From Bilabrum cf. latius (lineage: Eukaryota), in the NCBI GenBank assembly GCA_965178125.1, contig OZ237748.1:434001-498000 (forward strand): a stretch of DNA of 64,000 bases, read 5' to 3'. Made by a program: the position numbers and the translations under genes. Shown piece after piece: positions 36,508 to 59,682 of this stretch. The stretch's first letter is position 1. Each line of letters starts with the position of its first letter. The notes under the pieces were generated by a model, which did no database searches, was not told the DNA's origin, and was given only the letters and a program-made list of their open reading frames with translations.

Positions 36508-36834
36508 CATGGCCCGCTGGCTGGCAGGGCACTCTCAAAGGGGCACTCCCCATCGGGGCGCAGGGGCAGTACTACGAGCCCATGGCCCGCTGGCTGGCAG
36601 GGAATTCTCAGGGGGGCACTGCCCATCGGGGCGCAGGGACAGTACTACGAGCCAAGGACGGATTCTAAGCTGCGTAATAGAGGATAGGTTCAGACTCTCG
36701 GAGCAATTGTTAAATCTGCATGTCCGACCACTAGATCTAGGAGATTGCCTTCAAGCTGCAGTAGCTAGTCGCTTGTTTTGCCCGATGCATCAATACTTGT
36801 AGCTAGTCGCTTGTTTTGCCCGATGCATCAATAC
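36508..36834. repeat. Two short tandem duplications: 73-bp x2 (36508-36653) and 38-bp-period x2 (36761-36834)
   Basis: CATGGCCCGCTGGCTGGCAGGG...GTACTACGAGCC occurs twice; GTAGCTAGTCGCTTGTTTTGCCCGATGCATCAATAC occurs twice. Confidence 0.9.
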
Positions 36835-36954
36835 CATAAGTCTTCAACCTATTTCGAAATCATGCATTGGATACGTCGAGCTAATTTTGCTGGCGGACAT
36901 TCGTGAGCGGCTACTGCTGGTGTTACACACGACAAGTGTTGAGGATCATATCAA

Positions 36955-36988
36955 GCCCCCCCGGGGTCTAGTCTCGAGCCGGGGGGGC
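36955..36988. other. GC-rich hairpin, candidate Helitron 3' subterminal stem-loop
   Basis: GCCCCCCCGG-14nt-CCGGGGGGGC is a perfect 10-bp stem, downstream of the minus-strand Helitron ORFs. No CTRR terminus was seen after it. Confidence 0.4.
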
Positions 36989-37559
36989 TATGGCTACCTG
37001 GCCCTGCCTCCATTTTGCTCTCATATCTGTGCTGGTATAGGCACCGCAGCGTTGCGGATGCAGTAGTACCTTTCAAAATTTGCGTCGGCAGTCGCTGTTT
37101 TACCTTGTCAGCTGCCGACAGCATGAAAGGTATCTTGTTGGCATGCCGTAACGCCAGGTGTGACCATGCATCGGAGCTGTCTTGCTTGCTGCAATGTAGT
37201 ATCGGCAGTTCTCGAAAGCAGCCATGCGTTTAGCGGCCCGTTGCCTTGGAACGTACTCCCACATTGTGTTGACCTTTATTGTGTTCCGCTAGCTAGTCAG
37301 TCTCTTCGTATCTGCCTCAAGGTGCAGCGCACTGTATCAATTTGACGTGGATGCGTCTGGTGAAGGGACAGAAAAACTACGTGGCGTTGCAGTCTACGAT
37401 TACATCTGCAGGTGCTATAGTGAGAAGTGGTTGTTGTTGCCAGAAATAGGATGCACATCATAACCAAGTATATATTCGATCATTTTGAAACTGGTCACTC
37501 TGCGCCACCAGCGTGACTTCTGGAATCAAAATGCGTTCCTGGTTGTCTGTAGATGCGGT

Positions 37560-38474
37560 TCAATTGCGATCTTTCCGTGCTTTCTTGGCAGGTCTTGGTG
37601 ACTCAGCGTCTGGACGGGGTGTAGTCCTTGAGAGGCGCTGCGTTTGACGAGCGGGTGCTTGGGTATTTGGTAGGGCTGACGCCTCAGGAACTGCTGCGGA
37701 TGTGCCTGCGCCGGCCGTCTAGCGTAGGCGGAACCTCGGCCTCCGTACCGGCGATCTTGGAGCGTCTCCATGTACGGATTTGCACGGCTCCAGCTGCTCT
37801 GCTGCCCAGTATGGGCATTTCGATGCGGGGCTGATTGACACAGCGCATTGTAGTAGCCGATCTGGGCTGGTCTTCGCATGGCGACGGAAATGCTTCAGGT
37901 AGCTCTGAAGGATGACGGGCTTAGACAGGTAGTGCAGGTGCGTGGTGATGGTCTGGACCTCTGGATCTGGTGCTGGCGCTGCTCCTGCTGCTGCTCCTGC
38001 GAGCTGCGGTGGTGGCTGGAACAGAGTGCCCTGGCGGATTCCAGCGCGGCCCATCTGGAAGAAGAACGACGCCCATGACACGCAGGAAAGGAAGATCTCT
38101 TCTTGAGATGCCTCATCGTACCTCTGCAGCCCCTGGACCGCCTTAGCTGGCCCTAAGAATGCTTTTTTGAGCACTGCAGCAGACGCATGCATGAACGGCA
38201 GGCTGGAGCACAGGCGAGCATGCCCTCCTGCTTCCTCGATGCACTCCTTGAATCGCGCCTGGAATGCTTCTTGCACTGATGTCAGAACATGGCCACAGCT
38301 CGCAAGCTCCTGTAGAGTGGTTGCCTTGCAACTGCTCAATGCAGTCAGGATGTCTTCAGCCGAGCACGGCTTGAGGGCCTCAGTGAACATCTTTATGTGT
38401 TCTGCCGTGCATTCTGCGGCTTCATCTTTCTCCAGATGCTCCACAACGCTGATGATGACTTGTGTTAGAGCCAT
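37560..38474 (-). CDS. Hypothetical protein with weak BACK-domain-like segment, possible Helitron passenger gene
   Basis: 251-aa ORF extends through TAG 37719 to TGA at about 37560. SQEEIFLSCVSW resembles the BACK 'E..v..a...W' motif. Pyrimidine-rich TTTTTGCAG acceptor at about 38479 suggests an upstream exon. Confidence 0.45.
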
Positions 38475-38954
38475 ATGCCTGCAAAAAGTGTGGAAAGCGG
38501 AATCAAGTTGGCTGTGCTTTGCTTCCGTCTCTCTGAGACGATGCTTTTACTATCTGTTCGGGAAAATGATCTAGTATGATTGTTATACTATACAACTTAC
38601 GGCGTTTGAACGACTGCGGCACTGCTTGAGCTGCGAGATCGTCCAAGTGAAGTGTGAATGTCCTGACTCGGTTAGGCTGTTTCATGAGCGCATAGAGTCA
38701 TTGATCGTTGGATTTAAGCCATGCAAACCATCATTGAATATAGAATTGGTAATGAACCACTTACGCGGCTTTGCTTTGTGCTGACGATGCTGCCATACTC
38801 TGCGAGAAGAAGAAGTGAGCACGTGTTCCTTTCGAGTGATGAATTAGCGGAACCTAATATTTATGTCGTTACAATTAATGCGCGGCCTATAAAGCACTGT
38901 ACAATATAATATGTTTTCTTTACCGGACGTGATATTTAGAGTATTAGCCTAGTG

Positions 38955-41900
38955 TCAATCATCTGAATCCGATGCATCAATAGTTAAATCTAACAATCTA
39001 CTCTATTGTGATCGCCTCGTCCCTATCCAGTCGTGGTCCTGTAAGCTCCCTCCTGCCACTTGGAAGAACCATTTCTGGATTCCGAATCCGTCTGCATCGG
39101 GGCCGCATCGCAGGATCTGTAACATGAATGTGTATCGCAGGATCTTCATGTCCGTTGACTTGAAGCGCTGGTGAGCAGGCACGAGCACTGTGCGGTTGTC
39201 CCATGGTATCGCGAGCGGTCTCCTTTGCATTCCGGTAAGGTTCAAGACGGAATGCAAGCCGCAATTGGTGGAGTCGGATAATGGCTGCTGTTGCCCACCT
39301 GAATAGCGATGAAGGTGGATGCTGTGATCACTCCGAATAACTCCGATATGGAGTGCTGCAGCTAGAACTGTGCATAAGCGCTGTGCAAGTTGTGGAGTAT
39401 ACCTACTGTCAGCGCCGTAGGAGTCCTGGACGTACAGTCGTGAAGTTTCGCCCTCGTTGACAACTTGCGCGCAAACGTAGTGAAAGCCGTAGTGGATCAG
39501 GCTGCCTATCCATTTCAAAGGCCCTATGTTAGCGCGTCGTCTCCACAGCTCAACGTGGCGGTTGTTCAGCCCGATCTACGAGGGGAAGTTACAGCAGGAG
39601 CCTCTGAGGCATTCTTTGATCGCCGCGTAATGCTCAGATGGCACTGGTTGCTATGGGCTGGAAGCAAATTCCTGCAGTTCAGTAGATGACAGGTTTATAC
39701 CAGCGCTCTTCGAACCAAATTGACCTGGCCAAAACCGTGGAGGTAGCTTGATGACGTCGTACGACGTTGCACGCAAGTGCTGGCCAGTCATTGCGTACCG
39801 AGCATGGGCTCTGGTTAAACCTAGCCTGATTCGCAGCTAAGCCGGACTCCCCCCTCGTGCTTCTATGTTCAGCAGTTTGACGAAGAAATTCACGACCGGA
39901 GATCGAAGGCACTTGCCTGGTTGCAACGTCTGCATAGCCCAGTAATTTACAGATTGGCCAGGCAGTCTGGCCATGATTCGGGTACTCTCGGCAGGTTTCT
40001 GCAACCAGGCCGCTAGCACTGCAATCTCGATAGCTTCTGGTAGTGGCTCAATCCTGAGCAAGTCTGTGTCTTCCACGAAACGCATGGCTGCCTGCGTCTG
40101 GGTCGAAGATAGGCTAGTCATCCTGACGATCAAATTCTTGGCTTCAGCAACAATACGCTGATGATACGCAGGTACTTGCGCGAGAGTGGTGAGCTGCAAT
40201 GCACCACGAACGTCAACACGCGGGGACAGTACAAAAGTCGAGGGTGGCCTTTGCAATTGACCTGCTCTAAGGCTCAAGTCACCACCGCTGCGCTTCTCCT
40301 GCAATGGGCGAAAGCGTCTTTGGGACATCAGCATGCTTTCGTTTGCTGAAAACACAGCCTACGACACTCTGTGGATTTGATCTGGAGTGAGCACGTAGCC
40401 ATCTACTCTTTCTGACACACGTTCGTTGGAAATGGCTGGAACGGCGGCTCTGTCAGTGGTCTGTTGCGCGGGCGTCGTTGATCCGGCGAACATGCTGGGG
40501 TGTGACCCGTCCTTGCGAGACTGTCCTGAGCATCTTGGGTCCGAACGCTTTTGGGAGACGCGTGCCCACTGAGCGAAATCTGTGCATGTAGCGCCTGGCT
40601 GTCGTGAACTCTCAGAGGCAGACCTTGGATGGAGAGGGCGAGGAGCTAGTATGGACGGTATCCCCACGCCTCCCAATTGTTGTCTCTGTCTCACTGTAGA
40701 ATTTGAGGCAGCCAACAGGCTGGGGTGCAACATCTCGTCACGTGCTAACTGCTACCAATCCTTGGCCTTGCTCGTTTCGGTTCGTGACGAGTCAAATGAG
40801 TGTGGCACAGCAGTGCGTGGCTGAAGCGAGTTCCTCGCAAGTTCGGGCGCTGTACGAAGACCTAGTGATGGCGGGGTCGTGGCAGCATCGAAGTTCTCGA
40901 CATGTGTATCTCGCAGCAACAGAGCCGGTACTGTAGATGGAACCTCTCCGATAGACATAGCTCGAAGAACACGATACCCAAGGCGAAGCGTCCATTTGTC
41001 TGAATCACGCATCCGATGCATTTGCGCAACGCCACACACGTACAGGGACGTAATCATTTGGTCCCAGTCACTGAGCGTAGCAGTCGGCGGGCGACTGACT
41101 CTGTCCTGCTGTGCAGCTACTGAGCCGCTCCCGTGGAGCGTGCCGAGCGCTCTGTGCGCCAAGGCAGCGATAGGATCAGAGAGCACCAGGGCAAGACGGA
41201 CTACAGGGTTGGCGCTCCCAACGGTTTCACCAAGCACCTGTGCTATTGCGACTTCAATGAAGGAGTGGATCTTCTAGCGAAATAGATCAGGCATCCTGTC
41301 GGGTGGCCGTTCTTGGCCTGCCTGCTTCTGAGTTTCAATTGCGTCAATGAGCTGCCTTGACGGGTTGCTAGTCACAATCGATGTCAGGCGGTCCTGCGTA
41401 GCTCGCAGTTCTTCTTTGGTACCGTTTGGATGAAGCTGCATCACTATGCCAGGAACGATGGAGACGGCCTGAAACTGGTGCTCATTGGCAATCGTGTGCA
41501 TGGCCCGTAGAGCTGCAAGCCTTGTATGAAGAATGCTGAAAGCGAGGTTCCTTCTGTCCGGCTAGCAAGCTTCTGCTAAAAACCTCGGGCCGTGGCTTTC
41601 GTGAAGGTCGATATGCAAGTCGTTCTCACGCTACACTCTGCTCGCTGCCACGTAGAAACACTGATGCCAAGGGATTTCTTGCGTAAGCAGAAGAACTTTG
41701 TTCAGCGTGAGCCCTTGGCTGGCATGTACAGTTGATCCGAAGGCTTGCTTGATAGGATTGGCAATGACACTGATCGCCTTTCCTGATCTTCGGCCTCTTT
41801 GCCTCGCGTCAGATGGCTCGAATGGCAGAATGGATGGGACAGGCTTGACATATAGCACGGATGGCTTTCCTCTAGCGGGTGACTCAACCTCAAATGATAG

Positions 41901-44900
41901 ATACCCACCGTGGCCGGCGGCGTTGCAGCAAGAGTGTATCACTTTTCCACGGACCTGGTTTGTGATTCCCGCAGAAATGTTGATGTTCTTCGTAATTCGG
42001 ATTGGCAGTCCTGCATACAGCATCATTTCTAATCCCGGCACACGCTTGCTGACTCCTGACCGCTTAAGCTTCTTTGCAATGCCAAACACCAGGCTCTAGG
42101 ACTTGGCGTGCTGCAGGTCCAGGGTTCGCAATATCTTTCCATGCGGATCGACAACGTGAGCTTGAGCTCTGTGCAGCTTAGCCGTTCGCCGTTCCATGGA
42201 GTTTCCTGGGTCCGCTAAGATCGAGGCGATGCATTCACTATTCACGAGATCAACCTACGTGTTGGTGGCACACAGCGTCATGCTATTGTGAATGCTGGCA
42301 AGTTCATGAGGCGTACTCCGATTGCACTTGTGGTGTCCGCAAGCACGAAGCATTAGCCGATCGATGTCATCGGCAGTGCTCTACCCAACCCGCATGCGTG
42401 CAAGGAGATCGGCGTAACTGGTGTCCTGCTTGGCTCTGTGATTGGTCGTGAGGGTTAGTTGAATAGCTTGGCCCCACGCTGGAAAGTCGAAGGCTTGACC
42501 TGCAGATGATGTGACAGTCTGCCGTAGCCTGCTTGCTTCCTCTTTATCCAACTGGGCAGCAGCACTATCTATGCCGAACTTCTAATCTATAGCATGCAAG
42601 GCATCTTCGGTCAAGGCAGTTGGCTATATTGCGGACGCGAATGCGTCTACAACCGGGTGAGGCGGAGAAGCAGCTTCCATTGGTGAGACAATTGCTGGCA
42701 TTTGCCCAGCGTCGCCCGCCCACAGTACTGATCGGTAGCCCCAGGTAGGGATTTGCTATAGCGCATCCTCGTGCTGTATACCCTCTTGCTCTACCAAGTA
42801 TCTGTACCTATCAGTCGCCATCTTGAGAACGTTGTTCGCCACACCAAGCAATGCTGACGATGCAAAAAAAGCCTCATCAATGATGATTGCATCGCAGCCT
42901 TGGAGATGGCGATACCTCTGCACTGCTTTGCTTCTGTCAGCGGTCGCAGGTATCGAGAGCAGAAGTGCTCTGTGCAATGTGCATCCGGACTGGTCAAGGT
43001 TCTGTGCAGCCGTTGCAGTCGTGGCCGCCATGACGCAGCATATGCCACTTGCAGCGGCTGTGCCTCTGATAGCCTGAGACACGAATGACTTTCCACTGCC
43101 GGCAGAGCTGGCGAGGACCGCGAATGCGCCCGGTGTGTTTTGGGCCTGATTCGCGCGCCATGGCCTGAAGCCGCTGTGGCCGCAGAAGGAGCGAAGCACT
43201 AAGCGCTACTCCTCGTTCAACTGCGCAAAGGTTCCTGGGAATGAACTGATGCAACCAGCTTCGGCCCAAAGTGCAATCCTAGCTGACCTACGAAGAAGCT
43301 TCCGGGTGTCTTCGTCAAAGTACTTGGTTGAGCCTTGGATGAAACGCTGAAGACCTGCTAGGTTGTCGGTGATGTAATCAGCCTGTCGCTTCGATATGCA
43401 CACCATGCCTCGTGCCAGGAGTGCTTTCTGCGTGTCAGTCACAGTCGATCGTACGGCTTCTTCGACGGCAGAGTCGATGGACCTTGCAGGAAGTCGTGCT
43501 TGGAATGATCTGTGCATCGCAGCCATGTCGTCATAGGCCTTTCTTTCAGCAGCCAACCTCTGCGATCGATCCAAGCTACTCTCCTCATCCTCCCGCATGC
43601 GGTCGGCCGACTCTTCAACTGGTGGCATAACGTCGAACGAAGCTGTTGTCGTATTCTAATCCATGTCAGCAATCGGCACGGGTGCGTGTCTGGTCACATG
43701 GCCAAGCAGACCGACTGATCCGTTCTCACGGATGTGATCCATCTCGCGAGCGAACGAAGCGTCACTGTGTGCTGCCACACTGCCGACGCGACGCTCGGAC
43801 TAACTACCAGATGGAATCGAATGCTGGTCTTCCTAGGCACATCGCAAGCCTAATTCCGACAAAACTGATTCTGGATTGAATGGCTCTGCCCCAACAGTAT
43901 GAGTAGGCAGCTCTCGGGCACCGTCAGCTAGTGGAGCTGTAGCCTCACGTAGCAAAGTGGCCAATTGTGACTCGTCGATGGCGTACGCGAGCAGGTCATC
44001 GGTGTGGTCGAGCTGCATGTCGTTGTCGAATCGAAGTGTGACAATCATCTGCTGGAACCTCCGGGATTCGGTCGAGTTTCTCTGCACAAATCGTCGGCAC
44101 ACTGCCGGACCGCACTAAGATATCAGGGATCCAGGCAGCAATGCGTAGTCCTCTAGTCCGTGTTCGATTGTTTGAAGCGGCAGGCATGGTAAAGACTTCA
44201 CTGCAGCCGCAGCTTGAAGGGCTGAAGTTGTTACTAACGGCACCGGCCATTCGAGTGTGCCATGCGCGGGGCAGAGCGGGACCAGTGCCTGATACGTACT
44301 GTGCCCTACATATAACACATGCACAGCTGGGTAATTCCTTGTCGCCTCGAGATCTGGCGAATTCAACCGTCTCACCTCGCATATGTGGTTGCTTGGATCC
44401 CCTGGTTTGCGCTGTCCACACGGGGCGAACCCTAGTGCAAGCCGCACGTTGCAGTGAATGTCGCCCTCGCGAAGGCCGTCCAATCCGTCTGGTTGCGTCG
44501 CGATAGTGGGAGTGTGGGCAGGTAGCTCAGAGTGCGGTTCCGATGACCATTTCTGCCGCACATCGGCCTATCGAGCAATGCTGCACGGCACATAAACAAA
44601 CACGGCACACTGCAGCAACTTGCATGAGCCAATCAGTAGCGGCACACCAGCGAATGCATCCGGCCTTCCCATGTAGGCTATCAATGAGCGGGCGTAGTCA
44701 ATGGCGCTGGAACTTTCCATTGAGATCTAGCCGCGCACAGGCCGTTGTAATTCTGCAGGAACTTTGCCGTGGACTTCGACGGCATGTCTCCACATGCCTC
44801 GCACAGCGGCGGCAAGGTCTTTGCCTGCCATAACATTGGATACATCTGGAGATAGCCCTGCAGCAACAGCAAGAGACATCTGAAGGCTTTCATTTTGCGG

Positions 44901-47900
44901 CCACGTATTGCCGTGGCAACACTACCACACTGCAGGCATCGATTCGGATACATCCAACGCTGCCGAAGCTGATGATGACGAAGTGATGCTGGAGGCCAAA
45001 CTCGACGCAGATGGCAGACTCCAAGAAACCAGAGCGCTCCTTGCAGCCTGCTCGACTCCGACATGTAACGTGTCACGAACAGGCAGTGTGGTACAGACTG
45101 TCTGTGCAGGAATCCGCAAGATGGGCCCGAGGGCGTTCTGGGCCTACTTTCCGGATGGCAGAACGCCCATCGTTGCAACCGCGGAATTGTTGAGGTGCAT
45201 CAGTGACTCGATACACGTCCTGAGCATGAAGTACTTCTGTTCATGAGAGCTCCCTTCTTCAGTGCATTGATCAGCTCCAGATAGTATGAACCTGAAAGTC
45301 GTGACCAGTTGCTGCGTCAGCGAGTCCTTGGACGACCGTGCAGTAGCACTGTGAAGCAGGCACAGTCCAGCTATGTCTGACACGCCACGCAGCTCAGCTT
45401 CTCTCATGTAGGGCCGTTCGTGCTGTTTGGCTTCCTCGGACAGCATATCGTTTGAGTCTATGAAAGGCAAAAACGTTAACATGTGCCCGCGGCAGAACGC
45501 TTCAGCCGAATCCCCCGGGCTGTACGCGGTCACAGACACGAGCTTCTCACGCGAGAGAGCCCGATACTCTCGCCCAGCGCGGTCGTAGTATCGGTCAAGC
45601 TTGCTCGTGTATACTCTGCAATTCTTCGGACCGTCGGGGTCAACTTCCCGCTTGTACCTCTTTACAACCTAGCTAGCATGCTCTGCTCTAGTTGGAGTGA
45701 ACCACGCAAAGAATTCCTTGGCACAAAGCTCTGACGAAGTGATAACCTTGTTGGCGCTGATATCGATGCCGTATGCTCCCGGGCGCTATTCATCTGCAGC
45801 GAAATCCTCTGGATCAGTGCCGTTCACCACCCACATATGGTCTACTCCGTCGCCACTGTCTCGATAGAATGACACGTTTTCTTCTTCGCCAACGGTAGGA
45901 GCGTAAGCCTGAAGCACCGCCGCCTGAAGAGCACGTGAATGTGCTTCAACTACTTCACAGACCGTGTTGTCCTCACGCGTTCTGCTTGAATCTGCGGCAC
46001 TACTGCTGATTGGTGAAGAAGAGCAACTGTCATATACTGCTCGAAGTGAATCCGCCGAGGGCCCATGCAATCGACTGAAGGCAATTTCTTCGGCAGTGGA
46101 AACATCAAGGCCATGCTACAGGCCAGAGACGATGCCCTCATCCCCTCGTTCTGTTGTTGCTAACGTGTGCCTCTGATAATCAGCTACGAGAGGGGTACCG
46201 TATACCCTTGTCGCTTCTGCAATACCTTCCTTGAGCTGAACGAAGTGCCTGAGTCGTGATGGAGACTCGTCTGGTGATATGCATCGACCAAGCATTGGAA
46301 GTCGGATACCAAGAAATCGCTGCTCGTACCTAGTCAAGTTATCGAGGCCGAGTACAGCAGGATCTACGACATCATGGATTCGTGTTTGCGCGTAAATGCT
46401 TCGCTGCTGCTCGGAGATGCTGGAGTCATGTGAAGTTCCAAATGAACCGTCTGCAGCAGCCGCTCCCTTGGCTCTCTTGAGCTAGTCTTTTGCAGCGTTT
46501 GCATCTTGGACGATCTTCTTAGCCCTAGCCCTAGCCTCATTCAGCTTGGCTTCCAGGAGGGCATCGTCTGCGCCACCTGATCCCCGTTTCTGCAACTCTC
46601 TAGCAATCTATCGCCTGCTCTTGACAACTGCGGTTCTATGCTCAACTGGTCTAAGATCAACGTTGATCCCTGACCTCGATGACGAAAACATGCTTTGCCC
46701 TAGCAGCTGCGCTACGAGTTCCTGCGCACCTACGACGCGGCATCTCGCGTCTCTGGACTGTGCTGACATGGATGACTGCTCGTCAGCCGAGAGCACAGAA
46801 TATTTCTCCGTTTTGGACACATACATTGAGATGTAACTCGCCACTTTCGATGAATTGCAGTGCTACAGGTTCACGTGGCAATCCAGTGTATCAATCAGCA
46901 CTACGGAACTCGGTACCAGCCGCCGCTCGTCGTCACTACGGTGAAATTCGGTCATTCGACAACACTGCAATCGCGTCGAGTCAGGGTTCACGTCGAACTC
47001 GATGTTGTATCTGCATTTTGAAGCTTGGCTCTTGCCATGGTGGGAAACTTTGATGAAGCACCGGTTGGAACAGCGGTGGTATGCAGTCTAGACCCAGCTC
47101 TTTACAGCAGAATCTAGACGGGCAGACCCTGTGCTACTTACGCGCATAGTACTGAACAGCTCTCTCTAGGAGGGAACCTATTCCAGGGGGGTACCTGCCG
47201 GAATTCGCTACAGTCCGGATATCTTTGGAGCTACTGCCACGATTGAGTGAAGAGGCAATGGTACCCGGTCGTCAATCCAACCAAGGGCATGGGAATGCAG
47301 TGCACCTCTGGACTGAGCTTCTACACGGACGAGACCATCAAGCTGCCTCCCAAGGGGGCCGCATACAGGATCTTCTAGCATACACTGGATCGCATTCTGC
47401 ATGGCAAAGAACACGAGTGTTCTCTCTACGGGACAGTCCCTTGCTTTCAGTTTTCCAGTTCCAACCTGCCATTCTGGGTTGCAGTACAGTTTCATGTGTC
47501 GGATAGCATGCCACGTTTCACTAACAGTGATAGTGAGGAAAGTCTTGGGACACCCCAGGTGATCGACCATTAGGTTGGCTTTCTAGATTGCCTACTTCCG
47601 GGAAGCCTCTGATCCAGTGAGCAGTACTTGGACACTGGTGTCAGAGCTAGCACGGGCCTGCTATGAGGCAGCCTGCTTTGCAGTCAACTTGCGCGTACGA
47701 CTGTGGAGGACAACGCCAGAGCTATACGTGCCCTTCGCCCTCAGCGTCTCCTGAGCTAGAACAGTGACACGAACGAGTACATCGAACAGGGTTGCAAGTA
47801 GTCCTACACAGCCGCGAACAGATCTCGACGGCATGCGAACAATTGACTTGATCCAGTCGCGAAATCCAGCGGTCAGCTCATCTCTGTTGAGAAATTGAAA

Positions 47901-48484
47901 CACTGTTGCACCGATGGACTTGCCAGGCGTCGCATTTTTACCTTCATGACACGTCTCGACGATGTCACCTCGGTAGATAGCAGCTGCGATTGCAGGAATA
48001 AACTGTCCAATATATTGCAGTACTATCCGCTTGGTATCACGTAGATCCATCCGAGTGCCGTCAGCCACTTCACAGTACGGCGGTAGGCTGACAGACTCAT
48101 TTGTCTTGCTCTCAGCTGGAAGTTGCTGTGGCAGATGACCGCACGTTACCTTGACCGGTTTAGGTTGCTTCCATAGAGGTACTGTAGCGTCAATGTCAGG
48201 TGGAACCGTCTACGCATCATTGGCATACTGCTGCCGCAACCGTACGTTTGCTCGTGCCCATCGTCCACCACTTAGCTCTATTGACGTGACGAAAATATCT
48301 GGGACCTAAGACGGAGGTACTGCATTGCGATCGCTGTACGACACTGGGACAACTCCCTGTTCTACTAAATGAGGTACGTCGCATGGAATTTCGTCAGCAC
48401 TATTTCGATCACCCGAAGTGTAGCAACTCTAAACTGCTTTAGCTTTCGCAAGATGCTCGGCTCGATGGGGCCCGTTCTGAATGC
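38955..48484 (-). CDS. Helitron RepHel polyprotein, 3' part (about 3176 codons): HUH Rep, PIF1 helicase, C-terminal Ulp1/C48-like protease
   Basis: 17 ORF-track fragments share one frame and all end in TAG; terminal TGA at 38955. Rep: PKTFLTITVSETW, VEAQSRGALHSHALGW, HRCSNRC..KCRY, CHVNL(Q), YISMYVSK. Helicase: AGSGKS, AATTATAA..TLH, IIIDEA, GDAGQMPAI, TNHRAKQD, TVHASQGLTL, YVAASRV. Protease: LQPGKCLRSPVVNFF, HYVCA, QDSY, QQQP..DSTNCGL. Confidence 0.92.
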
Positions 48485-49904
48485 GATCTATCACTGCGAG
48501 ATTGTTTCGTCTTGGTCTACAGTCCTCGCTACGATGCTTGGCTCTCAGGGCGGTGGCGTATTGCCACCTTTGTGGACACGCGTGTGTCTAGTGACCGACC
48601 TGGCTCTATCTCCAGGTCAAGTGCTAGTGGTCGGGCAGCCCTGGTATGGGCTGCCGAGTCACCATGCCTCACGGCTCTGCCAAGACTTGGATTGTCTTGG
48701 CGAAGCGGTTACAACCGCTAACAGCGCGAAGCAACAGCCCTGTATCGATTCACTGCCAGTCAGTGCTTGCCCGAGGGGGAAGGTGGGCGGGTAAAATGTG
48801 ATGAGTTACAAATGAAAAGACTGGCGATGGGATGCGATAGTAGGTACTGCTGCAGTAGCGCGGCTGTGGTAGTAACTGCGGGGATGGTGGGTGGGTTCAA
48901 AACATCAAGCAGTGGGAATCACCTCCTATGGAGTTGCCCCTGCCTGTCTTCCCAGTGTGTATTGCCACATAATGACAATTATTACTGAGAATATCGGGGC
49001 ACAGCTGTAGAACACAGGTGCCACCGAAATTCCGAACAAGTGAGAGCCTCACATCTGCGCTCGGACTTGCGACCAATACTACACAATCTCTCCGATCTAA
49101 ATCACTTCGTAACGTGCCTCCGTACCTACGGCACACAACTGACGGGATCTATCACTGCGAGATTGTTTCGTCTTGGTCTACAGTCCTCGCTACGATGCTT
49201 GGCTCTCAGGGCGGTGGCGTATTGCCACCTTTGTGGACACGCGTGTGTCTAGTGACCGACCTGGCTCTATCTCCAGGTCAAGTGCTAGTGGTCGGGCAGC
49301 CCTGGTATGGGCTGCCGAGTCACCATGCCTCACGGCTCTGCCAAGACTTGGATTGTCTTGGCGAAGCGGTTACAACCGCTAACAGCGCGAAGCAACAGCC
49401 CTGTATCGATTCACTGCCAGTCAGTGCTTGCCCCGCCGTTACCCACATGTGGGGTATTGCACTGACGTGGTATTGCCCATTGCCGTATGTAATGCCGCGG
49501 GTACAGCTTGTATAGGGCGAGGTAGTGAAGTGAATCCCAGTGCTGTGCACGGCCACTCAATGCATTGGTTGTGTAACCGATGCAAAAGGGTGCTACGAAC
49601 TCCCAAGTGTCTCCCAGAATGCTACTTCTTCCTTTCATCTAGAACGATTGCTGGCAAATCCCAACTAGTTTACACATACATACCGAGACGAACTCCCAAA
49701 ATCAAACTCCCACAATTGTCTAGATGGCGAGGGAAAACCCCTGATGCGTCGAAATCAAAATCCCAAAGACTATATTTATAGAAATCAAACTCCCGGTATT
49801 GGCTAGACTGTGCCGGGGCCGAGCACAGATGACGGGTCTGGCCGAGAAGCAGTGGAGGCTAGTTGTCGCCAACATGCCGTGACTGAATGCATTGTGCAAA
49901 GCTA

Positions 49905-51104
49905 TTAAACAAAAATGCTCTTGATACTAGCAGCAAGGAACTCGGGCGTGGGATGCAAATAATCCCTGTAAGCATCGCTGGCCCACCTGCCTAAGGCCTA
50001 CAAGACATCGGCCGGGACGCCACGTTCCAAGCAGCACGTTGCTGCTCCATGGCGGAGAGAGTGAGCTGTTAGTCGCTCGAACCCGATAACGTCGGCTGCC
50101 TAGGCTGTGTCTCGAATCAGATCGGTCCAGTGCCGCTTTGTCAAGATTGGTTTACCCCTCCTGCGGGACCATGAGGGGGCCGTGCTCGGGAAAAGGCCGC
50201 TCGAGATGGAGAAATCCTTGCGGGCAGTCAGTCGACGGAGCCGCTTTTGCACGTTGAAGGGCGCAGGAGCCTCAGGGAATGCGATACAGCGATCGTCTTC
50301 GCCTCGCTAGTTGGTCTTGTCGCGAGGGAGAGCAAGGATTAGGGTCTGTCCACTCTTGTCCAGGTGCCTCCATGTCAGAGGTACGGCGGCATCTTTGGCC
50401 GATGGGTAGCATTCGCTGCCACGAAGCATGCCGATAAATGCTATCAACAATGCCACCTGACAGTGCTCGTCTGCGGCTGAGTGGCATGGCAGCTGGAGCA
50501 TACGTCTCAGCTCGCTGAGACGGAGCGGCCGCTTCGATGCCAAGTGCGCCGTGATATCGAATCTAGCCAGCGTATTGAACACACCCTTGACGAACTGCTT
50601 CACGATACGGTCTTGGCGGGGGGAGACCCAGGCTGGTGTCCAGTCACGGCGCAGGGCGATGCTGGCGAGCTAACTGAGCTTCTTGAGCATCGTCCGAGTG
50701 GAGGAGACTCGGCGTGGGGGTGACTTGCCGTTGCTTGAGACAGTTGGAGGCTGAGCTAAGGCTAGATCAAGAATGAAAGTCTTCAATCTGGCTGCAGTCA
50801 CACCGAAATCACTCGAGCTCCTTCGATCCTCTTGCGACACTGACCGCCTCCATTGCTCCTGAGTTGCCCGATAATGGTCCCAGGTGGAGGCAGCAAGATC
50901 AGCAACCTCCGCTGTCGCTGCAAGCTCCTTGAGAGAGCTGGCTGACAGGCGAGCACCGGTCGAGACTGCCCGATGAAGCTGATGGCCGTCCATTTGGGCC
51001 GGGCCTCCCCCCTCATTTCCTGCCTTTGGTCTTGCCTGCACTAAGAGAAGAGGTAGCAGCAGACGGAGCAAATCCCGAAGGGTGCAAGTCTTGAAGACAC
51101 GCAA
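49905..51104 (-). CDS. Tyrosine recombinase (DIRS/Ngaro type); start codon uncertain
   Basis: One frame through four TAGs to TAA 49905: LAASTWDHY, GMLRGSE, LPRDKTN(Q)RG, TAHSLRHGAAT, VL(Q)ALGRWASDAYRDY. The R-K-H-R-W-Y catalytic set is present. Confidence 0.9.
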
Positions 51105-51596
51105 TAGGGGGATGCAGGCGAAATGGCATTGCTGCCGTCACCGTGGATCGCGATGGGCCGGACGCGCAAGCAAGAGCATCAGCAAGCGTGTTAGCCTCGC
51201 GAGACAACCAGGCAGGCAGTAGGCCAGGCACAGCAAGGCGCTGAACCTCTTTGAAAATGAGGAACAGCGCTTCATTCAGTTGCCGCGACGAAGAACTTCG
51301 CTTTGCAACTGCCCCAGCGAGGGCTCCACTATCACCAATCCAAACAGCGCCGGTGGCACCGTGGGTGGTATGAGAGCAGAACAACAAGGCCATGTACAGT
51401 CCGACCGCCTCGCGAAGTGTACTAGATGATGCTGCTAGAGCCGAACCAGGCGAGAAGTCTACAGCCAACGCGAGAGGCTTGACAACGTGCCGTGGTCGCT
51501 CAATGATAGCCGCAGCGCCTGACTCCCCCGCGTCAGACGTGATGATGATGAGGTCGTCCCAGAACCGTGGCGCCTGCAGAGGACAACAGGTAGGAG
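51013..51596 (-). pseudogene. RNase H domain remnant of the Ngaro pol ORF
   Basis: IITSDAGESG ... SSTLREAVGL ... WIGDS ... WLSREANTLADALA (D-E-D-D pattern of DIRS-like RNase H). It begins abruptly after repeat A1 and overlaps the YR frame. Confidence 0.8.
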
Positions 51597-51841
51597 AACA
51601 TCAAGCAGTGGGAATCACCTCCTATGGAGTTGCCCCTGCCTGTCTTCCCAGTGTGTATTGCCACATAATGACAATTATTACTGAGAATATCGGGGCACAG
51701 CTGTAGAACACAGGTGCCACCGAAATTCCGAACAAGTGAGAGCCTCACATCTGCGCTCGGACTTGCGACCAATACTACACAATCTCTCCGATCTAAATCA
51801 CTTCGTAACGTGCCTCCGTACCTACGGCACACAACTGACGG

Positions 51842-54800
51842 TACCATTGATACCTGCATGAGCGGAAAGTGCCCGCGCGAAGCGCGGTCGTCGGCCCATT
51901 ACATAAGGTCTTGCCTCGCTTTTTGCCTTGTCCTACTTCTTCGAATGTTTAGTCGATCCAATATCGAAGGAGCACGCAATGATTCTAAAGTGACCCTCGA
52001 GGGAAGGCTCTGCCAGCGAGGTGGACTTAATGCTAGATCTTGCTGATGCATTCGTTGCAGAGTGCTTCACACGGCGCAGCTTCAGAACGATACCGGATCG
52101 ATACTCCAGTGACTCGCAATCACTGCTACTTGCATGCAGTGATTCCATACCAGCCCGTGGAGCTGCAGCAGCGAAGCCAAGAGCTGACTGTCTACTGCTT
52201 ATATCGTCCAGTAGTTCCATGCCAGAACTTGGTCTTTCAGCGGAAAGACCAGCTGATGCACGACAACTACTTCGTGAGGGCACTGCTTCCATGCCAGTGC
52301 TCGCAGCAGTACCGTAGCCCACTGATGCCTTCCTACCGCTGCCTGCATCCAGTTCTTCCATGCCAGCGCTGGAAGCAGAACCGTAGCCCAGTGCTGCCTT
52401 CCTACCGCTGCCTGCATCCAGTGCTTCCATGCCAGCGCTGGAAGCAGAACCGTAGCCTAGTGCTGCGTTCCTACCGCTGCCTGCATCCAGTGCTTCCATG
52501 CCAGCGCTGGAAGCAGAACCGTAGCCTAGTGCTGCGTTCCTACCGCTACTTGCATCCAGTGCTTCCATGCCAGCGCTGGAAGCCGAACCGTAGCCTAGTG
52601 CTGCGTTCCTACCGCTGCCTGCATCCAGTGCTTCCATACCAGCCCGTGGAGCTGCAGCAGCGAAGCCAAGAGCTGACTGTCTACTGCTTATATCGTCCAG
52701 TAGTTCCATGCCAGAACTTGGTCTTTCAGCGGAAAGACCAGCTGATGCACGACAACTACTTCGTGAGGGCACTGCTTCCATGCCAGTGCTCGCAGCAGTA
52801 CCGTAGCCTAGTGCTGCGTTCCTACCGCTGCCTGCATCCAGTGCTTCCATGCCAGCGCTGGAAGCAGAACCGTAGCCCAGTGATGCCTTCCTACCGCTGC
52901 CTGCATCCAGTGCTTCCATGCCAGCGCTGGAAGCAGAACCGTAGCCCAGTGATGCCTTCCTACCGCTGCCTGCATCCAGTGCTTCCATGCCAGCGCTGGA
53001 AGCAGAACCGTAGCCTAGTGCTGCGTTCCTACCGCTGCCTGCATCCAGTGCTTCCATGCTAGCGCTGGAAGCAGAACCGTAGCCTATTGCTGCGTTCCTA
53101 CCGCTGCCTGCATCCAGTGCTTCCATGCCAGCGCTGGAAGCAGAACCGTAGCCCACTGATGCCTTCCTACCGCTGCTTGCATCCAGTGCTTCCATGCCAG
53201 CGCTGGAAGCAGAACCGTAGCCCAGTGATGCCTTCCTACCGCTGCCTGCATCCAGTGCTTCCATGCCAGCGCTGGAAGCAGAACCGTAGCCTAGTGCTGC
53301 GTTCCTACCGCTGCCTGCATCCAGTGCTTCCATGCCAGCGCTGGAAGCAGAACCGTAGCCTACTGATGCCTTCCTACCGCTGCCTGCATCCAGTGCTTCC
53401 ATGCCAGCGCTGGAAGCAGAACCGTAGCCTAGTGCTGCGTTCCTACCGCTGCTTGCATCCAGTGCTTCCATGCTAGCGCTGGAAGCAGAACCGTAGCCTA
53501 TTGCTGCGTTCCTACCGCTGCCTGCATCCAGTGCTTCCATGCCAGCGCTGGAAGCAGAACCGTAGCCCAGTGATGCCTTCCTACCGCTGCCTGCATCCAG
53601 TGCTTCCATGCCAGCGCTGGAAGCAGAACCGTAGCCCAGTGATGCCTTCCTACCGCTGCCTGCATCCAGTGCTTCCATGCCAGCGCTGGAAGCAGAACCG
53701 TAGCCTAGTGCTGCGTTCCTACCGCTGCCTGCATCCAGTGCTTCCATGCCAGCGCTGGAAGCAGAACCGTAGCCTAGTGCTGCGTTCCTACCGCTGCTTG
53801 CATCCAGTGCTTCCGTGCCAGCGCTGGAAGCCGAACCGTAGCCTAGTGCTGCGTTCCTACCGCTACTTGCATCCAGTGCTTCCATGCCAGCGCTGGAAGC
53901 AGAACCGTAGCCTAGTGCTGCCTTCCTACCGCTGCTTGCATCCAGTGCTTCCATGCCAGCGCTGGAAGCAGAACCGTAGCCTAGTGCTGCGTTCCTACCG
54001 CTGCCTGCATCCAGTGCTTCCATGCCAGCGCTGGAAGCCGAACCGTAGCCTAGTGCTGCGTTCCTACCGCTGCCTGCATCCAGTGCTTCCATGCCAGCGC
54101 TGGAAGCAGAACCGTAGCCTAGTGCTGCGTTCCTACCGCTGCCTGCATCCAGTGCTTCCATGCCAGCGCTGGAAGCAGAACCGTAGCCTAGTGCTGCGTT
54201 CCTACCGCTGCCTGCATCCAGTGCTTCCATGCCAGCGCTGGAAGCCGAACCGTAGCCTAGTGCTGCGTTCCTACCGCTGCTTGCATCCAGTGCTTCCATG
54301 CCAGCGCTGGAAGCAGAACCGTAGCCTAGTGCTGCGTTCCTACCGCTGCCTGCATCCAGTGCTTCCATGCCAGTGCTCGCAGCAGTACCGTAGCCTAGTG
54401 CTGCGGTCCTACCGCTGCTTGCATCCAGTGCTTCCATGCCAGCGCTGGAAGCCGAACCGTAGCCTAGTGCTGCGTTCCTACCGCTGCCTGCATCCAGTGC
54501 TTCCATGCCAGCGCTGGAAGCCGAACCGTAGCCTAGTGCTGCGTTCCTACCGCTGCCTGCATCCAGTGCTTCCATGCCAGCGCTGGAAGCAGAACCGTAG
54601 CCCAGTGATGCCTTCCTACCGCTGCCTGCATCCAGTGCTTCCATGCCAGCGCTGGAAGCCGAACCGTAGCCTAGTGCTGCGTTCCTACCGCTGCTTGCAT
54701 CCAGTGCTTCCATGCCAGCGCTGGAAGCCGAACCGTAGCCTAGTGCTGCCTTCCTACCGCTGCCTGCATCCAGTGCTTCCATGCCAGCGCTGGAAACAGA

Positions 54801-57800
54801 ACCGTAGCCCAGTGATGCCTTCCTACCGCTGCCTGCATCCAGTGCTTCCATGCCAGCGCTGGAAGCCGAACCGTAGCCTAGTGCTGCGTTCCTACCGCTG
54901 CCTGCATCCAGTGCTGGTCTGCCTGCACGCGCTGATTGAATCGCGTTGAGACGGCTGTCACTGAAGTCACTTATCAGTTTCGCAGTACGGTGCAAAGTAT
55001 TAGGCTACAGCGAGTTCACGACAGCTTCAGCTCTTTGACGAAGTACACGTTCTACGTTGTGAAGAGGACGAACTGGGGTCGACAGCCTTTCCAGGTCAAG
55101 CACGGTATATTCGGGTGTAGCGGATTCCTTTGATCGCTGTAGTACTGCAGTGTGTGACAATTGGCCTGACTTGTCTGGTCCTTTTGACGGTCGCGGACCC
55201 TCAACTTCCGGTGAGCCTGTCTGCTACAGTACCCCAGACGAAGCCGAATGTTGAAAGTCGTCTGCATAAGAAGATCTATGGGGCCCTTCCGGTGCCAATG
55301 ATGCAGAGGCGGAAGGAGCACTACCATCTCCAACACATTGCGGAGTAGACGAAGCTTCGATACCATCGTCGTCATCGCTGTCGAACGTAGGACCACTTAT
55401 GACACAGGAAGAAGCAATTCTCTCAAAGTGAACCTTGCTTGCTCGAAAGTGATCCATACTGTATCCCTCGTGTAACAGAGCACTGCCTACATCCTTTTGC
55501 AGCTCTAGCGACAGCTTACTAAACTCAGACGTGATCAATTGAAGCAGGTTTTTCTCGCCGAGTCTGTCGCTATGACTATCCACAAACTACTACAAACGAG
55601 ATCGATATGGTAGCCCCTTGTAACCGCAGCAGTACACTAAGGCCCGAATCAAACGCTATGGACGGATGCCGTGTTCGTCCTTGTTCAGCCTCGTATCAGT
55701 GAGCCTACTCATCATGACACCCATCTGTGCGTCTGCATACAGAGCGTCGCGCTGAAGCTGCTTCCTCAGCGATGACGAAAGCTTTGCACCAGACACCATG
55801 GAACCAAGAACGGCTTGCTCGTCTTTCCTACTGTGGTGTACGTTTGACCCTACCAGATGGTGCGTCGCATCGCAACGTAGTGACTGCGACATGCTTCCCT
55901 GTATTTTTGCGTGTGGCTAGAGGCTAGTCGGATTCAGTGTTAGCCTGCTTCTGATAGAGCACGATACCATCTGCACGGCGCATAGCTCGGCTGGTGTCAG
56001 GCCTTTCAAGGGAGCGGGTGTTGCAACTCGATATCTCACTGCACGGCCTGCATCGTGCACCAGCTGCGCTGCAATCTTCCGGGCCTCGGACACCACTGGA
56101 TCTGAATCGTGAGCAGGAATACCGCCATTGTCTTCGCAATATGTGACGACGGCTTTGATTGCCTCCACGCACGCTTTGTGGGAGCATGTTCCTACAAAAT
56201 ACCGCGCAGAAAATTCTCTTCTGTCTGGTACTGCCATGGCTTCGAGTCTGCCGGCAAGCCTGCTGGATGATCGTCCAACTTGCACTGGCCTCTTGTTCTT
56301 TCCCCACTGAGAGGCACTCGGAGTGTGCAGCAGTGGCCCCACGACATCTCTCGCGAGCATGCCATGGCCCCTGGAGAGGATGGGGAAGGGATCTACCCCG
56401 AGGATGCGAGGATGTCCGTCAGCCCGAGGTTCAAGCATCTTCTGCTCAAATGTCTGTCCATAGAACTCCCAAGCAGGCAGCAGTTGTTCCCGGATTTGCT
56501 CGCTCGGCTCACCAATCCTTGTGTCGGTGACTGGTCTTTGCTTGAAGAAAGCTTCACTGATTGGCTGGAACACGCTGGTTCTCCAATCTCGTAACTGTCC
56601 GCAGCTGACGCAATGGCCAAGACGTTGTCCAGCGGCAAGGTCCCCCCGCCACACGTCAAGCATTGGGCTACGTAGTTGACCATCAATTGCTCTGCAAGGG
56701 ACGTGCACGTAAGCTTTTTGTCCATCATGCTGAAAAGTCTTCACCTGCATAGGGGCGAGTGACAGGAATCTCTCCGTCATGCTGAGTAGCAAGTGCTCCC
56801 ACCCACCCGCCGACTTCAGGATCTCCAATGCATTGACTGTCTGTTGTGCCAGATCTGTAAACTGGTGCCCGCAGTGCTTCATGACTTTGCGAACTCGATT
56901 TAAAACAGCGTGTCGACCGATGAATGGCCTCTCGTGCTGAGGCAACCCTTCGCCAAGTTCCTGGAATGGGAACACGTACCGTGCCATCAAGCGAAGCAGA
57001 TGAGAGTCCCAAGCGTGTGGGCCAGAATCGAGTAGAATCTCCCTAAAAACAGTGTGTAGCCAGTCCTTGTTTTTGTCTCTACTGCGTTTCAGCGTGATTG
57101 CGCCCAATCGAATCAAATTTGGGTTGTCAATCAAACGACGTGCGAGAATTTGCAGTCTCGAGCCCTTGATCTGGCCGGTTGTGTTGTCGAAGTGGGTCTG
57201 GAGCAATTTTGCTAACCTCTCAGCTTCGAAGCAAGTACAATCATGAATAGCAGTCTTGCCCTCTGATTCTATACCCTCTGCATTATTGGAGGTAGAATCA
57301 CCGTTCTCACTACCTATGTGAGCAGTGCCTGTGAAGGTCTAGTAGGAAAGGCTGGATCACTTGCAGAACTCTTTGTGCAATATGATGATTGGCAAGAAGG
57401 TCGTACATGATAGGGGTAGTGGTTGTCTCACTGCCGGAGCTGCACCTTGAACAGCTTTTCCATGCCGCTTGCATGTCTTCGCCGAGCATGCACGAGGCAA
57501 CCACTGGATCTGGTCCCATTTTTTCGATGAGCAACTCTTGAAATCGTTTCAAGCGCGGTGGTGTAGCTTCTCGCTACGGCACTATAGCTGCTTCCTCTGC
57601 TACGTTGCCAGGAGATGGCTGTGGCGGTAGAGAAGCATCGGGCTGGGCAGTATCTCGCCCTAATGCAGTTCGTGCTGATCTGGAGACTGCGCTGGCGAGG
57701 CTACTGTCGGTAGATCTAGTGCGTCCACTGCTAGTGCCGAAAAAATCAGCACGCTCCATTGACTGCCTGGAACCGCGTGATTTTGCCATAGCCTGACCTT

Positions 57801-57831
57801 TCCGCACTGCTTTCTATGACCTCTTCGGCAT
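51842..57831 (-). CDS. Helitron polyprotein, 5' part: uncharacterised N-terminal region plus 23-aa repeat tract
   Basis: Frame is open (TAG only in the segments read) from about 57356 to 51842 and is the same frame as 48484-38955 after removing the 3357-bp insertion. Candidate ATG 57831 (MPKRS(Q)KAVRKG) is in another frame, so a frameshift or intron is needed near 57310-57450. Probable 5' intron GTAAGT..CTCGCAG at about 57971-57865. Confidence 0.7.
52140..54915 (-). repeat. Coding minisatellite, 69-bp unit (ALDAGSGRNAALGYGSASSAGME), about 40 units
   Basis: Directly visible. Several unit variants are synonymous in this frame (TCT/TCG, CTA/CTG). Confidence 0.95.
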
Positions 57832-58199
57832 TGCAGACGGCCTCCGTAAATCAGCTTTCTTTTCCTGCGAGAATTGGTGCGATGAAAGAAGCCGTGCCCT
57901 TGTACCGAGTCGTTTAGTACACGTTGTTCAGCTGCGTCGCAAAATTTCAACCATTTCCAGTCCATACTTACGATCTAGATAGTCTTAAAATTCCCAAGCT
58001 GAGTAAATGCTGGTATGTAACCTTGATTGGGTGCGCAGAGCGCAAGTTCCGAGATGTGAAAAACGATTGGAATCGAGGATCGGATCATTTGTCGCCGCGG
58101 CGGAACATTATGAGCCAGTGGTAACCGATGCTAGCATGGCTTTGCAGAGCTGCGCAGGTGTACGATTTTCAGTACACCTCTGTCTAGCCATACCTAGCA

Positions 58200-58670
58200 G
58201 CCGTGACCATCCCAGCGCGCCCCGATTAGCGGCCACGCATGAGACGACGCTGCACCTCACCGCACCTCACTGCTCGTCTGGTCGCCGTCTCCTCCTGGCC
58301 CGACTGTGCGTCTTCCCCTTGCCCAGCTCACCGTCCACCAGTGCCTAGCTGCCGTAAGCGCCCCCGACAGCGGCCACGCATGAGACGACGCTGCACCTCA
58401 CCGCACCTCACTGCTCCTCTGGTCGCCGTCTCCTCCTGGCCCGACTGTGCGTCTTGCCGTTGCCGTCTGCTCGCCGTCCTCTCCTGAACCGGCTTGCCGT
58501 CCACCAGTGCCTAGCTGCCGTGAGGAGTCCGGCGCGCACTCGACAGCGGCCACGCATGAGACGACGCTGCAATGCGCTGTACTGCACCTCACGGGCCGTC
58601 TGCTCGCCGTCCTCTCCTGACCCGGAGCACCGTCCACGAATGCCTAGCTGCCGTGAGGAGTCCGGCGGGC
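58200..58670. repeat. Degenerate tandem repeat, about 140-180-bp units
   Basis: AGCGGCCACGCATGAGACGACGCTGCA occurs at about 58228, 58369 and 58546; CCTAGCTGCCGT recurs. Confidence 0.85.
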
Positions 58671-59682
58671 ACTGGAAAGCGCGCACCTGTAGAAGAGGTT
58701 GGGGTCGAAGCTTGTTCGCCAATAGTCACCTCGTAGATCAACATCTTGGCATTGTCTGACTGTATCAGACAACATCATCCCGCCGAATGGAGGCTGATGT
58801 TTTGCTCTCAATAGAGGACGAGATGGTTGCTTGGCGTGTTCATCATGGTTGGACGGCGACGCTGTTGATTTTTGGCCTACGTTGAGGAAGGCACTTCTGG
58901 TAGGCTTTGGAATGTACACGTTTACGTAAACAGGTACTGGCGACGACTTGCAAAACAGCAAATCTGCGCCTCTGGCAGCATTATGGTCTGGCTGCAAGGT
59001 TTGAGACACCTCAGAGATAGGGAAGATAACAGCTCGAAGAGACAAATATTCAGCGAATACGAAACTGTTAATTAGAACACTCTTACTGTGCTTGTTATCA
59101 TGCCGTGTAGAGTACTACAGCAGCAGCGCAAACTACTTTCTCAGATCAAGGCAGGTACCCAGAGAAATTCAAGCCAAAGCGATATAGCACTCTTCAGCTA
59201 GTGCTATAGAATCGATATTGATCTTATCTGTTAAGCGAGTCAGTCGCAAGACGCTATGATTGAAGTCAAATAGTAGGTTCGCTGCTGGACCTTACTGGGA
59301 AGTACTCTGATGATCGGATCAGCCTGCAGCCACACAGATTTTCCGGGCGGGAGAATCGTAAAGGCTTTTTCCCTAGTACATGCACTGACTTAAAGACACC
59401 AGATTTCTTCCTCATTTTACAATTAGGAACTTTTGTACTGGCAAATTTTTGAGATATGCTCTCAATATGTCTGTGGCCCGAAAGGTTCGCTGGAGGTGGC
59501 CGTCGGCGTCATGATTTTCGATTCGTGCTCGTTGCCTGAAACCTCGATTTAGAAACAGCCAGCGGCAAACGATTCTACTAAGATAGACAAAGATAGTCCG
59601 GGGGCTCCGGGTGGGGCCCCGCGGGGCAGAAAGGTTCGAAATCAAAACCCCCTGAGGGCGAACTATAGTACTAGTTCGTTTC

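Follow-up and report, generated by a model that had tools for sequence, protein, structure and literature searches.

We analysed a 64,000-nucleotide stretch of the Bilabrum cf. latius genome (assembly GCA_965178125.1, contig OZ237748.1, positions 434,001 to 498,000, forward strand; hereafter the window) and found in it what is very probably a Helitron with a single giant gene for a fused Rep nuclease and helicase (RepHel). UAG in this gene likely encodes glutamine, the gene is broken by a Ngaro-type insertion, and its end is likely a captured host Ulp1-type SUMO protease. The ends of the element, the open frame, the motifs of the two-tyrosine HUH nuclease (HUH-Y2) and of the helicase, the insertion and the architecture of sister elements were observed directly. 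Feature coordinates are collected in Table 1.

On the minus strand, translation with genetic code table 15 revealed two long frames, 38955-48668 (3,237 codons) and 51798-57356 (1,852 codons), which share one reading frame. When 48485-51841 (3,357 bp) was dropped, 57356-51842 and 48484-38955 joined into 5,014 codons and a stop with the junction GING-S-IQNGPH, as the original prediction of a single frame of about 5000 codons had stated. The joined frame contained 48 TAG and no internal TAA or TGA, which extends the predicted absence of these stops to the gaps left unread at the time; approximately 135 were expected from base composition (log10 P ~ -59), and the other two frames of the joined stretch held 92 and 137. 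Under table 11, no open piece of the Rep-helicase part exceeded 190 codons, and standard-code gene callers cut the gene into fragments of less than 500 amino acids (aa) (P0004-P0011). The predicted open span from about 57356 to 38955 thus stands, but the gene start does not: the first methionine of the joined frame is codon 124, downstream of the onset of conserved sequence. An upstream open reading frame (ORF) from 57831, in another frame, can be joined to the main frame by a GT-AG intron, and the spliced and joined product has 5,138 aa and no stops. In a sister element on C21, a similar basic exon (MPRGRKR) precedes a 116-nt GT-AG intron at a matching place and phase. The intron at 57431-57329 was picked from 33 frame-compatible GT-AG pairs by its likeness to the sister's acceptor; the gene therefore has a likely upstream exon and small 5' intron, with a predicted product of about 5,140 aa, and the predicted status of the intron is a point against our reading of the gene. 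The element is larger than the extent first proposed, 38955-57831, and runs from 59686 to 36933.

The dropped segment has the layout A1-recombinase ORF-B1 A2 B2, which is the Ngaro repeat arrangement. It shares split direct repeats (A1-[ORF]-B1A2B2) and a tyrosine recombinase with the Ngaro retrotransposons of Cafeteria burkhardae (PMC8547959), and differs from them in measuring 3.4 kb and carrying the recombinase ORF alone. No reverse transcriptase (RT) or RNase H ORF was found in the insertion, whose sole frame is the 410-codon recombinase; by its sequence, it is classed as a non-autonomous Ngaro derivative. The genome holds three more copies of the insertion core at 94-99% identity and seven partial matches, and in the other copies both insert ends meet unrelated flanks at the exact excision bases, without target duplication. 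Because these copies fix the insert ends, the join cannot be put down to frame fitting. The repeat pairs A1/A2 and B1/B2 are each 100% identical, compared with 95-99.6% to other copies, so the breakage is recent; as the insertion places stops before Rep, the present copy is predicted to have lost its activity. Further Ngaro fragments or solo repeats of the same family lie at 7309-7491, 11863-12121 and 21009-22247 of the window, the last representing a related non-autonomous subtype.

In two divergent sisters, a single frame was found to encode the N-terminal region together with Rep and the helicase. The C21 sister, from the same genome (family B), has a frame of 3,272 codons that contains one TGA, ends inside the helicase and shows 29-33% identity over the N-terminal region, Rep, linker and helicase. 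The other, on metagenome contig L046, is an uninterrupted 4,197-codon ORF with 47 TAG and no TAA or TGA, encoding the same N-terminal region, Rep (Helitron_like_N), a long linker, a PIF1 helicase and a UCH deubiquitinase (USP/UCH; E 1.3e-28). Lack of linkage between the 5' part and RepHel in sister copies had been named as a result that would refute the prediction; both sisters link them without the insertion, which, together with the stop-free gaps, bears out the claim of a recently intact, unusually large Helitron. The excision could instead have joined separate genes, or a chance chimera, of the 5' part (N-terminal region and repeats) with RepHel, since the junction lies in a poorly conserved stretch where similarity to the sisters is missing from about 1,200 aa upstream of it to about 40 aa downstream. 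However, the positions of the insert ends were established independently, the reading frame is maintained across the join and the sisters, L046 above all, largely refute a chimera, which we regard as extremely unlikely. Two observations weigh against a single interrupted gene: the genome yielded no copy of this exact family free of interruption, and no empty-site joint was found in four read runs (at most two samples) placed on 36500-52140. In the latter analysis, the assembled read contigs extend across the insertion junctions by 27 letters in one case and 30 in the other, just short of the 31-letter bar, and read contig X5 is identical over its Helitron coverage and adds no second allele.

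A second family B copy, on C2, is a 3' fragment with a frameshift; it stops about 220 aa past the helicase and has no protease. Over 1,035 codons, the C21 and C2 copies differ at 106 synonymous and 87 non-synonymous codons, which suggests purifying selection. A search with Rep of 1.84 billion representatives gave 65 matches, nine of them fragments of this group and the rest at E 4e-11 or weaker. A Rep word-index search among proteins of 1,780-5,665 aa returned none of 6,450 candidates, and viral contigs contained no relative of the element.

We then consider the meaning of the in-frame TAG codons. In the Rep-helicase part, TAG faced glutamine in 14 of 27 well-aligned homologue residues and never tyrosine or glutamate, compared with 24/63 for CAG and 10/24 for CAA; at two TAG sites within conserved motifs, glutamine was present in 6/6 and 4/4 homologues. 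In-frame TAG was also present elsewhere in the host, in the frame of a long interspersed nuclear element (LINE; 23 codons), the Ngaro recombinase (4), an RPC1 match (2) and RPB1 (1, facing glutamine in 2/2 aligned RPB1 chains); the recoding is host-wide and not specific to the element. A nuclear tRNA with a CUA anticodon (L069, C23:907607-907679, minus strand; 69.8 bits) has a D arm resembling that of this genome's tRNA-Gln(UUG). These alignments and the tRNA make it likely that UAG encodes glutamine in this host. Three results count against glutamine: the CUA tRNA is overall closer to tRNA-Tyr(GUA) (score 50) than to tRNA-Gln (43) among 23 compared, glutamine faces TAG in 2/11 residues in family B, and the two RPC1 sites face cysteine and asparagine in human RPC1 (one alignment). 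The first two would favour TAG as a true stop in a decayed pseudogene or as another residue such as tyrosine. Against this stand the 48 TAG versus zero TAA or TGA, the glutamine at the two conserved-motif sites, and the in-frame TAG in RPC1, RPB1, the LINE and the Ngaro recombinase, and we give it almost no chance. UAG-only glutamine codes are described in some ciliates and Iotanema (PMC11687900); the literature searched, with most subscription journals outside it, described no stramenopile with UAG as glutamine, and the code may be unreported for this lineage. The LINE frame with its 23 TAG is an intact 1,486-codon non-LTR retrotransposon frame at 29265-33725 of the window (minus strand; RVT_1 E 2.8e-17), whose 3' end recurs at C2, C11 and C28. 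Another long frame of the host, at C2:287975-301663 (plus strand; L014-L015), runs over 4,562 codons under table 15, includes a 31-aa repeat in about 18 copies and is followed by a membrane-transporter-like gene.

The domain order of the original prediction was recovered in the joined protein, with Helitron_like_N, AAA_30/PIF1 and 38.1 copies of the 69-bp unit. The N-terminal region had no match above cut-off in Pfam or the Protein Data Bank (PDB), its profile retrieved one of 5,539 candidates in a word-index search (an 81% identical fragment), and an AlphaFold2 model from four sequences reached a mean predicted confidence (pLDDT) of 37, too poor for a fold search. The minisatellite accounts for about 880 of the 5,014 codons; 15 of its 17 variants are non-synonymous, and it is open in three of six frames and nearly open in two more. 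As this repeat is missing in the sisters, the family core is about 4,200 aa; the protein minus the minisatellite has about 4,250 aa, similar to L046. In Rep, the H-S-H and Y-x-x-x-Y motifs align with those of Helraiser (PDB 7LCC), at a weak overall score (E 0.0036). The distance from the two tyrosines to Walker A is 1,245 aa, in agreement with the claimed linker of over 1000 aa; it is 1,400 and 1,551 aa in the sisters and 286-467 aa in 12 distant Helitron proteins. Among helicase profiles, AAA_30 was above cut-off and PIF1 below its own (20.6 of 25.9 bits), while PIF1 reached E 1e-16 in L046. Rep and helicase keep the residue classes essential in Helraiser (PMC4778049). An OTU-like domain in the linker, suspected by eye from its resemblance to a motif, was rejected as unproven: a three-sequence profile gave no support in PDB, the best hit among stored proteins was at shuffle level, and hhalign to the OTU domain of P0012 gave a probability of 0.1%. 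AbiEi_1 (E 0.06-0.09) and HAUS-augmin3 (E 0.018) were below cut-off and disregarded.

The ends of the element were defined by comparison with three non-autonomous copies of the same family (family A), on C22 (2.4 kb), C34 (4.1 kb) and C28 (28.1 kb), which match it over 376 bp at the 5' end (95%) and about 100 bp at the 3' end (85-86%). All four copies start with TTAAG and finish with an 11-bp GC hairpin and 21 nt ending in CTTG, followed by T. The preceding base is A in two copies and G in two, giving an R^T target without target duplication; in the window copy, this G is the last base of an earlier unit. That unit belongs to a head-to-tail array of 1,311-bp units, seven copies counting the adjoining genome stretch, and the giant Helitron begins where the last unit ends. 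Since the outer flank of the array is A, the whole cluster occupies one A^T site. Family B on C21 has 1.23-kb non-autonomous units (TTAAGG...CTAG, A^T) in tandem arrays on both sides of the truncated transposase gene (C21:880808-900569), and family C units start with TTAA, end with CTTG and have an outer flank of A. The 5'-TT is thus common to all three families, with 3' CTTG in A and C and CTAG in B; the CTTG departs from CTRR, which weighs against the assignment. An asymmetric terminal inverted repeat (8-15 bp) was absent, the longest exact inverted match between the first 60 and last 200 nt being 6-7 nt. Head-to-tail arrays are consistent with rolling-circle transposition through circles.

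These ends bear on whether the gene is a domesticated, immobile host gene of Helitron origin, as its single copy in the genome, long open frame and likely intron might indicate. Complete ends common to three dispersed non-autonomous copies, a position at the end of a Helitron-like unit array, and a disrupted gene with no intact allele seen argue for a mobile Helitron instead, and domestication is very unlikely in our judgement. The C28 copy contains, inside its 82-bp satellite, an AT-rich endogenous virophage (C28 ~122100-143400; L034-L036) with a V20-like major capsid protein, an rve integrase with a chromodomain, an ATPase and 28-bp repeats at both ends. The pairing of such a virophage with Ngaro elements is reminiscent of Cafeteria, a tentative lead on the host lineage. 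Imperfect direct repeats occur in the long 5' non-coding region of the window Helitron (~58200-58700), and a 1.65-kb segment at 8041-9688 of the window matches a portion of the C21 family B array at 98% identity.

The C-terminal protease was identified through host paralogues. BLASTP aligned the domain to the host genes L049 (E 1e-7) and L050 (E 3e-7) in a first segment and, colinearly, in a second (E 2e-5 and 3e-4); both host genes were found with PF02902 and pass its cut-off. By eye, His, Asp, Gln and Cys follow in the same order as in L049 and L050, with Gln and Cys also aligned by BLAST and MAFFT. Idiosyncratic segments common to the domain and the host genes suggest that it was captured from this host lineage, and the domain is likely a captured, putative Ulp1-type SUMO protease. 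The protease of the original prediction therefore holds by way of these paralogues and not by a match of its own: the domain itself had no match in Pfam (including PF02902) or PDB, a homologue search returned 0 of 1,531 candidates, and MAFFT left the element's His and Asp unaligned with the host's, the catalytic residues being placed by eye. All three results speak against the protease assignment. An AlphaFold2 model of the last 500 aa from a single sequence (pLDDT 31) was of too low quality for a fold search. Divergent Ulp1/C48-like genes number at least seven in the host (L049, L050, L047, L048, L051, L053 and L054), and some of them form look-alike pairs.

An alternative that is compatible with Helitron identity, and rivals the proposed protease step, is that read-through at the 3' end captured the domain as inert cargo, which plays no part in transposition. 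Helitrons pick up flanking DNA when the hairpin is bypassed (PMC4778049), and the family B copy on C2 ends shortly past the helicase without a protease. By contrast, the domain is fused in frame and still open at about 25-30% identity to its host paralogues, its His, Asp, Gln and Cys are seemingly kept, and a sister independently has a different isopeptidase at the same position. We consider inert cargo rather unlikely, while giving it appreciable weight. Because the isopeptidase is exchanged (Ulp1 here, UCH in L046, none in the family B copy), a functional protease would be an accessory part of the element.

Table 1. Features of the giant Helitron and adjoining units (window positions)
Feature	Position	Strand	Details
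Whole Helitron, family A	36933..59686	-	22,754 bp; 19,397 bp minus Ngaro insertion; ends common to C22, C34 and C28 copies
Head-to-tail array of 1,311-bp non-autonomous Helitron-like unit	59687..64000	-	5'-TTAA...hairpin, CTTG-3'
5' terminal sequence	59311..59686	-	Starts TTAAG; 376 bp, 95% identity in 3 other copies; small hairpin ~59678-59659 (fold)
Predicted exon 1	57432..57831	-	Starts MPKRS, basic, ~134 codons; upstream ORF in another frame
Predicted 103-nt intron	57329..57431	-	GTGAGA...CACAG; likeness to sister acceptor
Conserved N-terminal region	55494..57263	-	~590 aa, Cys/His motifs; 33% identity to C21 sister (E 3e-78), 26% to L046 (E 6e-33)
In-frame 69-bp minisatellite	52284..54915	-	23 aa x 38 (38.1 copies); absent from both sisters
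Ngaro-type retroelement without RT	48485..51841	-	Phage_integrase E 2.9e-10 and split repeats
Insertion repeat A1	51841-51597	-	
Tyrosine recombinase ORF	51137-49905	-	
Insertion repeat B1	49433-49146	-	
Insertion repeat A2	49145-48901	-	
Insertion repeat B2	48772-48485	-	
Rep (HUH) nuclease	46600..47680	-	H-S-H near 47290, Y-x-x-x-Y ~46835-46821; PF14214 E 1.4e-13
Expanded Rep-helicase linker	43150..46600	-	Partly kept in sisters; no Pfam match
PIF1-like SF1B helicase	41630..43150	-	Walker A GSGKS at 43100, Walker B DE, motifs III-VI present
Post-helicase region	40215..41630	-	No family match; first part alone aligns to sisters
Putative Ulp1/C48-like cysteine protease domain	39051..40214	-	His ~39482, Asp ~39425, Gln ~39293, Cys ~39263 (by eye)
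Second ORF	37560..38474	-	~304 codons; without detected homologue
3' terminus	36933..36989	-	11-bp GC-rich hairpin 36989-36954, 21 nt ending CTTG, then host T; kept in C22, C34 and C28

Elsewhere in the window, large satellite arrays with units of 326 bp and 125/128 bp occupy 12132-20833, and scattered ankyrin-like gene fragments lie at 22482-23471 (plus strand) and in 86-bp repeats at 1170-1358, 5607-5794, 27984-28251 and ~36260-36400. Rfam gave no match in the window or in three further loci.

The position of the family was assessed with a Rep tree built by a quick method, in which 53 of 62 rows were kept, curated sequences of HLE2, proto-Helentron and Paramecium lying outside the set. The four family members grouped in one clade (Shimodaira-Hasegawa-like approximate likelihood ratio test, 100) whose stem measured 1.32 changes per column. 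This clade fell outside a five-row clade that we take to be HLE1-type from its motifs, and deeper forks were unresolved. A separate Helitron clade is plausible on this tree.

The element was also compared with described Helitron groups. The Helraiser (HLE1) transposase of 1,496 aa shares with it an HUH nuclease with two tyrosines and a PIF1-like helicase in one ORF, a 3' hairpin and an A^T target without duplication; in contrast, our element has a product of about 5,140 aa, a Rep-helicase spacing about four times longer, 5'-TT in place of TC, CTTG (family A) in place of CTRR, an extra N-terminal region and a C-terminal protease (PMC4778049). The proto-Helentron of Phytophthora infestans has 5'-TT, 3'-CTAG and an A^T target (PMC4067079), with a RepHel of 1,783 aa that carries DUF6570 and groups with HLE2 (PMC4067079, PMC11417382). 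The present families agree with it in 5'-TT, A^T and the lack of an apurinic/apyrimidinic (AP) endonuclease, the CTAG being exact in family B and varied to CTTG in A and C. They differ in having no DUF6570 match and no SET or TIR ORFs seen. Neither DUF6570 nor AP endonuclease had a Pfam match in P0001, P0002 or L046, where divergence could hide either.

HLE2 elements (Helitron2/Helentron) resemble ours in a small 5' hairpin and in captured UCH and Peptidase_C48 domains, and are unlike it in their asymmetric terminal inverted repeat, T^T target and DUF6570/endonuclease (PMC3627910, PMC11417382). In the HELIANO survey, the captured UCH (enriched in HLE2 subgroups c and d) and Peptidase_C48 domains sit in ORFs separate from RepHel (PMC11417382); in the present elements they are fused with RepHel itself. 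The Paramecium Helitron clade likewise has very long transposase ORFs, recoded stops in a protist, satellites inside elements and ORF-less derivatives, but its ORFs are 9-10 kb, the longest Helitron transposase ORFs we found in print, versus 12.6-15.4 kb here, and its ends are CCAA in telomeric repeats; the word 'protease' is absent from the main text of that paper (PMC13085455). Helitron transposases are given as over 1,500 to 2,000 aa (PMC6431247). Outside Helitrons, the MULE/VANDAL element Kaonashi captured and kept a host Ulp1 in an anti-silencing context, its exact role unknown; it belongs to another transposon class, and its Ulp1 is fused to VANC and not to the transposase (PMC13317346). 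The literature searched, which left out Repbase as well as most subscription journals, described no Helitron like this one.

By analogy with Helraiser (PMC4778049), Rep would nick the 5'-TT end, and 5'-to-3' peeling of the strand by the helicase would go on until the GC hairpin stops it at CTTG; a circle would then form and enter an A^T or G^T site, leaving no duplication. This enzyme likely also mobilised the short non-autonomous copies in trans and built the head-to-tail arrays. The fused protease may strip SUMO (or ubiquitin, in the UCH-bearing sister) from the transposase, a covalent protein-DNA intermediate or nearby chromatin. That such desumoylation or deubiquitination takes place and lets the element escape degradation or silencing is, in our view, possible but somewhat less likely than not.

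Taken together, these results tentatively suggest, at little short of even chances, that the elements form a major Helitron clade that has yet to be described and lies apart from HLE1, HLE2 and the Paramecium group. Its RepHel proteins (4,200-5,100 aa) would be the largest so far, with a new N-terminal domain of about 600 aa and a C-terminal slot of exchangeable content, which a SUMO protease and a deubiquitinase would have come to occupy independently to counter host ubiquitin-like defences; such a clade would have been missed owing to its hosts' use of UAG as glutamine. The element extends the known size range of Helitron transposases, and its TT...CT(A/T)G ends are a second case of the proto-Helentron end type previously reported in Phytophthora alone. 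Two distinct ubiquitin-like isopeptidases at the same place in sister elements make it testable why transposons keep Ulp1, OTU and UCH domains, and L046 offers an intact natural copy for study.

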